From Gammaproteobacteria bacterium (GTDB taxonomy: Bacteria > Pseudomonadota > Gammaproteobacteria > Pseudomonadales > UBA6940), in contig JAYPYM010000003.1 in assembly GCA_038135915.1 (NCBI GenBank), positions 4,107 to 48,077 on the forward strand: 43,971 nt of DNA, in the 5' to 3' direction. A program made the position numbers and the translations under genes. Below, piece by piece: positions 9,501 through 13,482 of the stretch; the stretch's first letter is position 1, and every line of letters starts with the position of its first letter. The notes below the pieces were generated by a model. It was not told where the DNA came from. It made no database searches and worked only from the letters and a program-made list of their open reading frames with translations.

Positions 9501-11448
9501 TCTCAGCAACATCACCTCCTTCACCAGCATCCATGTTGCGCGCTGTTTCAGCAGCCTGTTGCAACCAACCGTTGAGGGTTTGACGAAAATGAAGGATTGC
9601 ATCAAGAGGTAATACTTCTCTTACGCTTTGTATGACACCCTGGATAGGTTCGATAACAGGGGCCAGCTGCTCCCTGATCGCATGCCAAGCAGCTTGAGCC
9701 TGTTCCTGAATCCACTGTATCAACCCACCCTCATTACTCCCAGCTCCATCTGAAATACCCAACTGCTGTTTCATCCAAGACCAGGCATCCCCAACAAAGG
9801 TTCTTATGGCATTTATCACTGGACGTGACCATTCCCAAATTTGACGCCCCAGACCAGAAATAAATGCCCATGTATCCCCGGCCACTTCCCGTAACCAATC
9901 CACCACAGGCGCCCCAAAACGCTGCCAAAGATCTGAAAAGTAGTCTCCAATGGGCCTAAAAAAATTGCTAATCGCTGACCAGGCATCACCCGCTAATTCC
10001 GTTACCATATCTCGCATCTGTCTCAATGATGCAAACAGGGGCTCACAATTGCCTTGCGCCAATCCAACGAGAATATTTGCTACACTGCCAGCCAAGCGTG
10101 AAAACGTCTGAAATAATGTGCCAATGACGCCGCTCTGATTAGACAAGCCTGTAAAAATTGAATCCGCGGCTTCACTGATTTTCTCACGGATATAACCAAA
10201 GAAGCCTTTTTGCTGAACCTCACGAATAAGATTCATCAGTTGCCTCGGCGCAACTCGTTCCACCACTGACCAGATCATGTCAACACCCACTTCAGCAGCA
10301 CCTGAAATCCTGTTGCCGATGTCGTTAACAGTGTTTAGAAATCGCCCTCCAAAACTGTCATCTTCATCCCTTTGAACTGAACTAACACTAGGATTCTGGG
10401 CGGTTGAAATCTGTGGCGATACAGCTGTTTCATGAACCTGGGGAGCAGCCCCTTGCTGGATCACGTGTGTTAATTCATGACCTAGTAGGTGCCGCCCCGC
10501 ATGAGAATCAGGCTGATATGCATCTCGGGCAAACACCACATGATCCTGATAGGTATATGCACGCGCATTGATAGCCTCTGCAGTCTCTGCTGCCTGCTGG
10601 TCAGTATGAATGGTAACATTAGAAATATCATACCCCATTCGATCACTAAAAAACTGAGCGATCTTCCCTGGAATTTTCCGCCCTCCTCTAAACACTGCTT
10701 TAATTCGTTGCCATAACCCAGGTTTTTCTGCGCCTGGTTGATCTAAACTGGTTGTCTTTCGCTGAAATTCGACTTCTTGCTCACATTCATCACAAAGCCT
10801 TTGCAGCTCTTCTTCAGAGGTGCTTTCAGCAATAGCGTTAACCGGCAATGACTCAGTTGTCTCAGCCATTGGTTTTGCTTGCAAGACTTCGGTTGCTACG
10901 CGATCCGCCTCTTTCTCCAAGGGGTCATCCGGCTGACTGACCACCACAGCTCGTTGTAATTTGGATGCTTGAGGATCTACTTCATGATTACATTCGTCAC
11001 AGAGACGATTTACCTGTTCCTTGTCTTCCTCAGCTGCGTCCCCGTGAAATACGTCCTCTTCACCATATTCGGATGTTTGGAGCTGTAGCGTTTCGTCTTG
11101 TTCATGTTCAGATATATCTCGTTGAAGGGAAACTTGTTCTTCATCGCAGGTGTCACACAAAGATTGGCTTGGGTCTTGTTCGGATCTTGCTAACACCTGG
11201 TGGGCCACACGATCTGCTTCTTGCTCTAACGCATCACTGGGTTGACTGACACTGACTTCTGGCTTGGCAGAAACAGGCCTGTGTTTAGCTTGAACACCAG
11301 CCTCTTTCAATGAAGCAGGATATTCATTACCCTGAATAACACGAAGCACTGCTTGATTTTGACGCAGACGACCCTGTTTGCGTGAAGTACGAGATGATCT
11401 CCCGTTCGTTGTCACCTTTGCTTTAACGCTGGTCTGAGCCCTTTCCAT
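6556..11448 (-). CDS. DUF4157 (eCIS core domain) protein with long amphipathic helical region and C-terminal DNA/RNA non-specific (His-Me) endonuclease domain
   Basis: DUF4157 signature MGYDISNVTIHTD...AINARAYTYQDHVVF...HLLGHELTHVIQQ; W/F-periodic helical middle; C-terminal KGHLLNHNIGGPGDSTNMYPITGAANSAH..VESRVK. Confidence 0.85.
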   Translation of the reverse strand: MERAQTSVKAKVTTNGRSSRTSRKQGRLRQNQAVLRVIQGNEYPASLKEAGVQAKHRPVSAKPEVSVSQPSDALEQEADRVAHQVLARSEQDPSQSLCDTCDEEQVSLQRDISEHEQDETLQLQTSEYGEEDVFHGDAAEEDKEQVNRLCDECNHEVDPQASKLQRAVVVSQPDDPLEKEADRVATEVLQAKPMAETTESLPVNAIAESTSEEELQRLCDECEQEVEFQRKTTSLDQPGAEKPGLWQRIKAVFRGGRKIPGKIAQFFSDRMGYDISNVTIHTDQQAAETAEAINARAYTYQDHVVFARDAYQPDSHAGRHLLGHELTHVIQQGAAPQVHETAVSPQISTAQNPSVSSVQRDEDDSFGGRFLNTVNDIGNRISGAAEVGVDMIWSVVERVAPRQLMNLIREVQQKGFFGYIREKISEAADSIFTGLSNQSGVIGTLFQTFSRLAGSVANILVGLAQGNCEPLFASLRQMRDMVTELAGDAWSAISNFFRPIGDYFSDLWQRFGAPVVDWLREVAGDTWAFISGLGRQIWEWSRPVINAIRTFVGDAWSWMKQQLGISDGAGSNEGGLIQWIQEQAQAAWHAIREQLAPVIEPIQGVIQSVREVLPLDAILHFRQTLNGWLQQAAETARNMDAGEGGDVAENQDSLRAILPAILESIQSFRGSLISTGVWVGEKIGQVVEVGQGFISAIARSPIVRGIGAAFGWLNDGLNHLNHWAQQTVQGLFTNIGNALVWLSQFIEPVLNALRRILEVVGNLLGRLPDFLLGPIWWLLPDCIKNPIKNFFIEQILARIPLFQQLMEAGDIWQRVQATALSILRQIFVDGDLMGAAWRFFREMLGLIGIPAQLVVRIIANAAQAISDIIMNPIGFLNNLLRSMWQGATQFFSNILSHLLGGVTGWLFGQIEEAGLTPPDITSFRSIVEFVFDLLGLTLENIWRILAEHVGRPLVDRIRSALEFATGAWEFVRVAVTEGLPGIWRMIQERLSDLWNLVLDSVASWVNSAIVTTASRWLLSLLDATGITPVINALIAVYRAIESFAQYLVQMLEVVNSVVAGLGEIAQGMIQRAADYLESTMAESLPIVIGFLANQFGLGRLGSRVRELVESLRERVNGALSWLIGNAVRLGSGFLDMVRSGVAAVRNWWENRHSFRDSTGQSHQLYFPSERGELTVESDPTPVGRFLSALVIANEDPQRAQKQNHKTRAQAKLNEINRIKTDIARQRRGADTSSLQTQLNQKINELSTHLTPLLGGVGDTNGRLPSPLTLNTLNDPPVTMPRSPEEEQIDLNGARQILLLAVETADGSEALATNFDRIRTRFALSEVSYQQNGDRYAVKLRASREQRVDVNVAHRGTTTGINMASSITHNTGTAAGDTVGISMEADPLGRDKINAGSEPRASALRGVMSKLVTNPSRRSASKYIKGHLLNHNIGGPGDSTNMYPITGAANSAHHSRVESRVKSWIDRQYWVSYRVRVRNITESIRHPNAKHPENFINATFQCEAHIKNLDGSEREAFNDNIISTYSQQDVGGEQVEETAPLNLNNGVRQALDNLSSGSRTAAAIANAVERYNASVASPIGFGSARISAMLDAYRETGDLASWTGARRSALTFVNNRATIIRSVLTSPITTD

Positions 11449-13482: not shown

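Follow-up and report, generated by a model that had tools for sequence, protein, structure and literature searches.

Two candidate cargos of a gammaproteobacterial contractile injection system carry basic, dissimilar N-terminal leaders, and one of them appears to have lost its eCIS_core domain

The loading of cargo into extracellular contractile injection systems (eCIS) by means of an N-terminal signal is established knowledge and not a new idea. The payloads of the Photorhabdus virulence cassettes (PVC) bear disordered signal peptides of 50–70 aa that are loaded by Pvc15, and these leaders suffice for the loading of foreign proteins, as described in PMC11495950. In AlgoCIS, according to the account in preprint 10.64898/2026.05.27.728243, the N-terminal region of the cargo is needed for loading, the DUF4157 domain is dispensable, and the process requires the AAA+ protein Alg15 and ATP hydrolysis. 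PMC11297309 takes low hydrophobicity, the presence of disorder-promoting residues and low aromaticity as the defining traits of eCIS 'signal peptides'. Here we analyse an eCIS locus contained in a stretch of DNA of 43,971 nucleotides (nt) (hereafter the window; positions 4,107 to 48,077 of contig JAYPYM010000003.1, assembly GCA_038135915.1, from a gammaproteobacterium of the UBA6940 lineage), with special attention to the two proteins, here called A and B, that are encoded at the end of its operon. The preliminary description of this locus took loading by an N-terminal leader and an AAA+ ATPase as a known mechanism, which is matched by the accounts in PMC11495950 and preprint 10.64898/2026.05.27.728243, and proposed that A and B share the pattern VI-x5-PA-x-L as a subtype-specific loading signal. 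Our data make it fairly probable that A and B are both eCIS cargos with basic loading leaders, that the pattern is coincidental and that B has lost the eCIS_core domain (formerly DUF4157), all three taken together.

Pfam scans of the window reveal a full eCIS gene set on the minus strand, running from 34066 down to 6556 (Table 1). The genes of B and A are the last two of the eCIS operon, on the same strand and right after the baseplate and DUF6519 genes, and this position supports both proteins as good cargo candidates. A syntenic locus (L003) in a Hahella metagenome-assembled genome (MAG) has the identical gene order. The start codon of B overlaps the stop codon of the upstream DUF6519 gene (ATGA, 13479–13482), and a gap of only 39 nt (11449–11487) lies between A and B. 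The AlgoCIS operon of Algoriphagus machipongonensis likewise ends with two cargo genes, Cgo1 and Cgo2, in the descriptions given by PMC8894135 and preprint 10.64898/2026.05.27.728243. The layout reported there, with a disordered N-terminal region, a DUF4157/eCIS_core domain and a variable C-terminal domain, is fully reproduced in A, and the two systems are also alike in having a C-terminal metalloprotease in one cargo and a single-AAA loader in the locus. Unlike the AlgoCIS cargos as described, B is naturally devoid of eCIS_core. Cgo1 and Cgo2 reportedly share a similar N-terminal region while A and B do not, the Cgo proteins being compared here by their description. The PVC payloads Pnf, Pdp1 and Cif described in PMC11495950 likewise depend for loading on a disordered leader of about 50–70 aa and have an AAA+ ATPase in their operon; they are without DUF4157, unlike A, and their leaders too were compared by description. 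The window ATPase differs from the Pvc15 architecture outlined in the same paper, being a protein of 470 aa with one PF00004 stretch (250–374).

Both leaders had been called basic in the preliminary description, and their composition bears this out. When the first 35 residues were compared with those of 2556 crude open reading frame (ORF) N-termini from the same genome, the net charge was +8 in A (99.1 percentile) and +7 in B (98.0 percentile) and the Kyte-Doolittle hydropathy was -1.21 (2.2 percentile) and -1.09 (3.7 percentile), respectively; neither leader contains an aromatic residue, and the S+T+G fraction is 0.29 in A and 0.31 in B. A charge of at least +6, a hydropathy of at most -0.9 and the absence of aromatics are combined in nine of the 2556 ORFs, A and B among them (the other seven comprise five housekeeping proteins and two without a Pfam match). 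The leaders of A and B thus have the published 'eCIS signal peptide' traits of the eCIS-associated toxins (EATs) with an N-terminal DUF4157, for which the accounts in PMC8213781 and PMC11297309 define the signal by composition and not by a motif. The absence of a Sec signal, also claimed earlier, agrees with the hydrophilic character of both leaders as judged from composition, no signal-peptide predictor having been run. In AlphaFold2 models the per-residue confidence (pLDDT) is below 50 at residues 1–31 and 38–66 of A (modelled over residues 1–400), with a short helix at 30–38, and below 50 for residues 1–38 of B, rising to at least 87 from about residue 41 of the latter (mean 91.3). With low pLDDT taken as a proxy of disorder, the leaders of A (about 66 aa) and B (about 38 aa) are probably disordered. 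The search for further cargo with hidden Markov models (HMMs) of A-type and B-type leaders returned only A and B among 14999 six-frame pieces. One ORF that passed the composition filter, far from the eCIS locus, encodes a protein of 1175 aa with a Lys-rich, very basic N-terminus and no Pfam match (L026; G000:C48:6454-9978, plus strand).

The VI-x5-PA-x-L pattern is indeed present at a nearly equal offset in the two proteins, exactly where it had been placed, as V37 I38 ... P44 A45. L47 in A (nt 11308–11448, minus strand) and as V36 I37 ... P43 A44. L46 in B (nt 13345–13482, minus strand). The earlier caution that two instances may arise by chance proved well founded, the pattern not being clearly above the chance level. 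A local alignment of the first 60 aa of A and B scores 26 against 22.0 +/- 4.2 for shuffled sequences, 863 of 5000 of which reach 26. Five or more identities per 11-residue window at an offset of at most 1 were found in 371 of 20000 random ORF pairs (about 2%) and, when A was compared with shuffled B, in 127 of 5000 cases. The literal pattern has six matches in the 2,229,310 six-frame residues of the genome, which by a rough estimate is the order expected from typical residue frequencies; the four besides A and B are not N-terminal. In a loose form it occurs within the first 80 aa of one of the 15 A-family proteins, namely A itself. The pattern must also be regarded as post hoc, since it was defined after A and B had been viewed.

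Conservation in orthologs, which the preliminary description had itself named as the test of the motif, is not found for the pattern as a unit. The search with residues 1–340 of A was evaluated for the best 120 of 585 matches, and 14 orthologs with A's leader are among the matches listed. Nine of these 14 listed orthologs align over most or all of their length and five share the N-terminal 340–400 residues only, four of the five also sharing a C-terminal piece of about 100 residues; the full-length identity of A orthologs is 54–69%. M1, K11 and V34 never vary in the 15 A-type sequences (A and the 14 listed orthologs), and E2 and Q30 hardly do. Among 20 aligned A-type leaders the V37 column holds V in 14 and the I38 column holds L in 11 and I in 7, whereas the P44, A45 and L47 columns consist of gaps in 13, 14 and 14 leaders and hold P, A and L in 1, 1 and 2. 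The conserved element deduced from these column counts is R-Q-x3-V-[LM]-R-V-[LI]-Q, and the PA.L half, being nearly absent from the aligned leaders, is private to A and sits in a variable linker.

The conserved element of A resembles a box, 'L.LQR..GNQAV.RL[LI]', that is present in 47 of the 190 collected proteins at 18–126 residues from the N-terminus and is usually followed by '[IL]QAKL.[IV]..PGD.YEQEADRVA'. A reads ..RLRQNQAVLRVIQ..GVQAK..SQPSDALEQEADRVA, with the elements in the same order as in the canonical box proteins. The canonical set was formed after removal of P0065 and P0189 as false regular-expression hits, and the B-subfamily proteins P0001–P0004, P0003 among them, were left out of it. 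Comparison of the A-type leaders with the 47 canonical boxes by hhalign (P=0.011) places RQNQAVLRVIQ on IGNRAVERLIR, and a position-specific scoring matrix (PSSM) derived from the 14 A orthologs, window A left out, has its best match in the RQNQAVLRVIQ register for 27 of the 47 boxes. These alignments moderately, not strongly, support the view that the VI of A is the end of a diverged GNQAV-box helix. No family was found over the leader or box of A, P0092 and P0164 in Pfam (E<=5) or NCBIfam (E<=0.1), P0164 having been compared with Pfam only, and GNQAV-type box strings do not occur in eCIS context in the searchable literature, figures and supplements lying outside that search. The canonical-box HMM also matched, at E=0.049, a frame of 82 residues on contig C223; this frame has no Met upstream of the match, which was treated as spurious.

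In B, the same letters belong to a different part of the protein. The family of B comprises 70 homologs at E<=0.001, 64 of which carry PF13699 (eCIS_core); in B itself Pfam gives no PF13699 match at E<=0.01. Among the other five proteins without it, P0033, P0042 and P0058 start mid-sequence with no Met (two of them on contigs of 2055 and 2242 bases and one on a contig of 6071 bases), P0067 begins just before the conserved Cys, and P0060 is considered below. In the B family the eCIS_core ends with LLAHEL.H..QQ, and after a short linker there follows the block '[VIL]QR.CDPA.L..RT.P[VI]FFP', which in B contains I37 and PA.L. In the alignment of this block, from which eight of the 70 proteins were dropped as lacking the anchor (P0008, P0027, P0046, P0056, P0059, P0061, P0065 and P0070), the 62 members keep C41 in 61, D42 in 57, P43 in 52, A44 in 41, L46 in 43 and P56 in 62 cases. 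The conserved Cys lies at residue 133–311 in the relatives versus residue 41 in B. The three closest relatives, P0002–P0004 (67–69% identity), read ..NVHRLCDPAVL, ..TIHRLCDPAVL and ..QVMRRCDPALL where B has ..VIHTGCDPALL; in them the block stands at residue 133–181 behind the eCIS_core, and their leaders have no VI. Since the pLDDT of B is at least 87 from about residue 41, its PA.L belongs to the folded body. The B half of the supposed subtype-specific signal is thus the start of the folded body, which in relatives is found at residue 130–310.

Residues 1–31 of B (M.L.VKGRGH..G...) match an HMM of the leaders of P0002–P0004, built without B, at E=0.001 among the 14999 six-frame pieces. Taken with the position of the block at residue 41, this match presents B as a family leader fused almost directly to the post-domain block, and from these sequence comparisons the eCIS_core of B appears to have been lost by an in-frame deletion of about 100 or more residues. 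Such a deletion would have brought IHTGCDPALL (I37 to L46) next to the leader, and B would be a natural eCIS_core-less version of an effector with the order leader, eCIS_core, peptidoglycan-binding part and M35 peptidase. The B ortholog of the Hahella MAG locus has an intact eCIS_core. A one-off error of assembly does not explain the short form of B: in three further runs (X2–X4), contigs cover 13184–13750 with no difference or indel, the runs coming from the same study as the probable source and thus not representing independent studies. In a search of 41 genomes of the same family or order, G000 included, the 40 besides G000 yielded no B ortholog, and the comparison of B accordingly draws on metagenome proteins and on locus L003. 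The pattern shared by A and B is best treated as chance, that is, as a coincidence of non-equivalent segments. In P0060, a distant member of the B family on a 2842-base contig, the core of eCIS_core with its HExxH has been lost independently and in frame, ..FGRVRV being joined to LQQ..QRACDPAL; this represents a second natural removal of the domain. In some members of the B family an EQEAD helix is inserted inside the eCIS_core.

The wider premise that cargos of one system share their leaders was examined in the 21 loci to which the B family had led. Their eCIS_core ORFs were compared over the first 70 residues by the Smith-Waterman algorithm with BLOSUM62, using ORFs with at least 40 residues from the first Met to the core and one core-less ORF of locus L005 added by hand. 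The within-locus cargo pairs score 100–212 in 22 of 23 cases, and the between-locus median is 28; the only within-locus exception is the Hahella MAG locus with a score of 20, and the A–B pair of the window scores 26. In locus L005, from a Ca. Methanoperedens MAG, the GNQAV box is near-identical in four adjacent ORFs (E=1e-14 to 1e-19), of which one is without eCIS_core, and in locus L007 five ORFs have the common 'LLQRKCACGQHTIAGGEC..C.KKRLQR'. The cargo-like ORFs of L005 start at 5681, 9392, 12487 and 13895 on the plus strand; the 466-aa ORF at 12487 possesses the leader and has no eCIS_core match, and the leader therefore occurs without eCIS_core elsewhere too. The premise of shared cargo leaders consequently holds in the related systems, as judged from the 22 of 23 pairs and from the published passages, but does not extend to A and B. 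Genuinely shared leaders are long (about 45–70 aa) and unmistakable, and the two cargos of the A/B subgroup carry different ones.

The B-subfamily leaders were also compared by profile. The best score of the A-ortholog PSSM on the B leader, 3.2, is reached by 292 of 2555 background ORFs and falls elsewhere in the sequence. On P0002, P0003 and P0004 the PSSM matches weakly in the same register, at scores reached by 46, 187 and 311 of the 2555 ORFs, respectively. Neither the box HMM nor the A PSSM detects a canonical or A-type box in the B leader, and hhalign gives P=0.34 for the B-subfamily leaders against the canonical boxes. Against the A-type leaders it gives P=0.016 with three B-subfamily sequences, the B-family V being placed on V34 of A and not on V37, an alignment that is suggestive only.

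By analogy with the systems described above, the leaders of A and B are probably loading signals for the AAA+ ATPase of the locus. This 470-aa protein with its single AAA domain, which would belong to the unfoldase class, may engage the basic leaders and, as in PVC and AlgoCIS, thread A and B into the tube. In NCBIfam it resembles the CDC48, PAN and FtsH classes, each match staying under its cut-off. Prediction of a complex between the ATPase and residues 1–66 of A gave a score of 0.46, the best of three controls being 0.00; at least 37% of contacts recur between runs, and the partner has a pLDDT of at least 42. In the calibration of this score 58 of 80 solved complexes and 2 of 110 mismatched pairs attained the mark; at scores of 0.60 or below, only seven of the 80 solved complexes and both passing mismatches did so. 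The model lends weak support to the binding of A residues 1–66 by the ATPase. In the leader of A, the VI would end the helix of a diverged 'LQR..GNQAV.RLL' box and PA.L would lie in the linker. It is a tentative possibility that B represents a natural minimal cargo that lacks both box and eCIS_core, whose leader, some 38 residues long and characterised by its charge and disorder, is attached directly to a folded effector, and which is loaded by the same ATPase as A. If this were the case, the GNQAV box and eCIS_core would be accessory in nature, as they are in the engineered AlgoCIS constructs, and the machine of this eCIS subgroup would either recognise leaders by their composition or read two distinct leader codes, unlike the situation in the 22 of 23 related cargo pairs with one common leader.

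Several points weigh against the reading that A and B are cargos with loading leaders, a coincidental motif and a lost eCIS_core in B. The leaders of A and B are dissimilar whereas 22 of the 23 related pairs are alike, a difference that one ATPase reading both would have to accommodate; the link between leader and ATPase itself comes from analogy and a weak complex score. The homology of A's box is modest: with the A PSSM the 99th percentile of the background is exceeded by none of the canonical boxes, and the canonical-box HMM matches A only at E=1.6 genome-wide. The nominal chance of about 2% is low enough that chance is not proven, and the case against the motif therefore rests mainly on its non-conservation. 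The end-points of the deletion in B are ambiguous within residues 32–40, the DNA alignment with L003 being too diverged to place them and three protein alignments being possible. MAFFT and free-gap dynamic programming put LMHQVIHT on the HExxH helix LAHEL.HT, a placement that needs two or more deletions; HELxH would then have turned into HQVIH, and the VI would occupy the two central positions of a defunct zinc motif. Of the eCIS_core, no more than its last helix survives in B, in the form of HQVIH. The H-x3-H spacing is no strong argument here, because the leader of B is His-rich. A single clean deletion fits the identities of I37-H38 with ..IHRLCDP of P0003 and of S28, H29, R31 and V36 with ..SHHRQAPAV of P0002, and the VI would then straddle the junction. 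Under either deletion reading the VI of B is not equivalent to V37 I38 of A.

The alternative that survives best is that B is no longer injected, the loss of eCIS_core, and perhaps of part of the leader box, having uncoupled it from loading; the protein would then be in decay or act on behalf of the producer, for instance as an enzyme directed at the cell wall that aids the release of particles. B lacks a domain kept by 64 of its 70 relatives, its leader has no detectable A-type or canonical box, it combines two peptidoglycan-binding modules with a peptidase, and eCIS particles are described in PMC8213781 as being released by lysis. We nevertheless consider this unlikely, for B has an uninterrupted reading frame with translational coupling to the gene upstream, its body retains every residue that is invariant in the family (H425, E426, H429, D436 and Y439 among them) in a confident model, and the basic leader is retained and matches those of the relatives. 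The engineered DUF4157-deleted cargos of AlgoCIS are, moreover, still loaded according to preprint 10.64898/2026.05.27.728243, and B, as judged from composition, has no export signal that would give it access to the producer's own wall.

More improbable still is the view that the leaders are not signals at all, cargo being selected through eCIS_core in cis or in trans or through gene position, and the basic leaders being no more than unfolded N-termini compatible with the tube. The enrichment of DUF4157 in or beside eCIS toxins and the cis or trans chaperone role proposed for it in PMC11297309 speak in its favour, as does the presence of the genome's only eCIS_core in A, which adjoins B. In AlgoCIS, the only system tested, the N-terminal region was nevertheless needed and DUF4157 was dispensable (as stated in preprint 10.64898/2026.05.27.728243), PVC leaders suffice to load foreign proteins in the account of PMC11495950, and the conservation of leaders within loci in 22 of 23 pairs points to selection on the leader sequence. 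That VI-x5-PA-x-L at about residue 36 is a subtype-specific short linear motif read by the loading machinery in both cargos is very hard to believe in spite of its near-equal offset in two adjacent cargo candidates, the nominal chance of about 2% and the fact that only A and B among the six literal matches in 2.23 million six-frame residues have it N-terminally, for it was chosen post hoc, PA.L is kept in 1, 1 and 2 of 20 A-type leaders, the loose pattern occurs in the first 80 aa of A alone among 15 A-family proteins, the block of P0002–P0004 lies at residue 133–181 behind eCIS_core with no VI in the leaders, and the PA.L of B is within a confidently folded body.

As to the bodies of the two proteins, B has at residues ~330–463 a match to PF14521 Aspzincin_M35 (E=1.1e-11, 45.7 bits versus a cut-off of 30), and the family keeps its HEAGH and GTEDFGYG motifs without variation, with H425, E426, H429, D436 and Y439 invariant in 55 sequences. 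B thus combines HExxH, a GTxDxxYG whose Asp is the third zinc ligand, and the predicted fold of M35 peptidases. Foldseek relates its model to the M35 structures 1ge6, 2x3b and 1eb6 (E=9e-5 to 5e-4), the match to 1ge6 (E=9e-5) having a target-normalised TM-score of 0.77, and to the OmpA-like structure 1oap; a sequence search of the PDB gave marginal matches only. B shares the M35 motifs and fold match with GfMEP (1ge6), AsaP1 (2x3b) and deuterolysin (1eb6) and differs from them in that the M35 domain lies within a much larger protein with PG_binding_1, an OmpA-like domain and an eCIS leader. B is a peptidoglycan-binding M35 aspzincin, which suggests, without proof, that its target is the bacterial envelope.

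The eCIS_core of A (PF13699, E=3.4e-27, residues 259–334) is the sole PF13699 match in the genome. The C-terminal part of A has a conserved GHLLNH...N..P....AN..H region and, at residues 1418–1476, a weak match to PF13930 Endonuclea_NS_2 (E=2.8e-4) that is below the Pfam cut-off; a PDB sequence search with the last 280 residues returned nothing at E<=1. With the order leader, eCIS_core and C-terminal nuclease-like region, A fits in among the DUF4157-type eCIS toxins as an ordinary representative. Before the eCIS_core, at residues ~66–235 (window 10750–11250, minus strand), an [S.P.D.LE.EADRVA helix] module occurs twice and a [C-D-x-C ... LQR] module three times, both appearing in the AlphaFold2 model as separate helices of middling confidence.

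Table 1. Features of the eCIS locus and of proteins A and B, in window coordinates
Feature	Coordinates	Strand	Basis or remarks
Sheath	32468-34066	-	Pfam
gp19-type tube	31847-32356	-	Pfam
Pvc16_N cap protein	28942-29964	-	Pfam
AAA+ ATPase, 470 aa, one AAA domain	27533-28945	-	PF00004 E=1.2e-25 at 250-374
CIS tube	26587-27252	-	Pfam
Hub	25147-26274	-	Pfam
Spike	24215-25075	-	Pfam
gp25	23807-24202	-	Pfam
Two Baseplate_J proteins	19582-23807	-	Pfam
P2_I-like protein	17958-19589	-	Pfam
DUF6519 giant protein, 1479 aa	13479-17918	-	Pfam
Protein B, 664 aa	11488-13482	-	Leader, PG_binding_1, OmpA-like, M35 aspzincin
B leader, residues 1-38	13369..13482	-	Low pLDDT, basic, His/Gly-rich
B residues 37-56, IHTGCDPALLGSRAEPVFFP	13315..13374	-	Conserved post-eCIS_core block with I37 and PA.L
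Protein A, 1630 aa	6556-11448	-	Leader, eCIS_core, long middle, C-terminal nuclease-like
A leader, residues 1-66	11251..11448	-	Low pLDDT, basic, one short predicted helix
A residues 29-39, RQNQAVLRVIQ	11332..11364	-	Putative diverged 'GNQAV.RLL' box, holds VI
A residues 42-47, EYPASL	11308..11325	-	PA.L half, not conserved
A eCIS_core (ex-DUF4157), zincin-like, with HELTH	10447..10674	-	Pfam; AlphaFold2 pLDDT 87-97 at ~250-340

The giant protein encoded directly upstream of the cargo genes, which is kept in L003, has DUF6519 at its N-terminus, weak matches to beta-propellers in the middle and HhH_5 at the C-terminus, and may be a fibre or receptor-binding component. The Hahella MAG locus has an extra ORF of 312 aa (P0191; L003:11958-12896, plus strand) between the orthologs of B and A. 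Its N-terminus is basic and its Aspzincin_M35 match, at 29.8 bits, falls short of the cut-off of 30; it has the appearance of a small third cargo without a counterpart in the window. Beyond the eCIS locus, an ORF of 568 aa (1544–3250, minus strand) belongs to no Pfam family at E<=0.01; the protein does not begin with a leader-like stretch and ends in a very basic tail. Between it and the eCIS locus there are genes of an ABC-F ATPase, a STAS protein and a metallo-beta-lactamase-fold protein.

The N-terminal loading leaders make eCIS particles programmable, and a true short consensus motif would for this reason be useful. The leaders that are really shared within loci are obvious over some 45–70 aa, and this may serve as a simple test for future claims of shared leaders. 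In the locus considered here, the natural loss of a domain in B and the presence of two unlike leaders with one loader are by-products of modest interest. B appears from sequence comparison to be a natural eCIS_core-less member of a widespread effector family and the natural counterpart of the engineered DUF4157-less AlgoCIS cargo that is described as still being loaded; neither the GNQAV-type box nor the loss of eCIS_core is mentioned in the passages on EATs in PMC8213781 and PMC11297309. In B, nature would have removed eCIS_core from an otherwise intact effector, which fits the dispensability of this domain for loading, and the window together with the Hahella MAG locus, each with two unlike leaders and one ATPase, offers a compact case for studying what the loader recognises.

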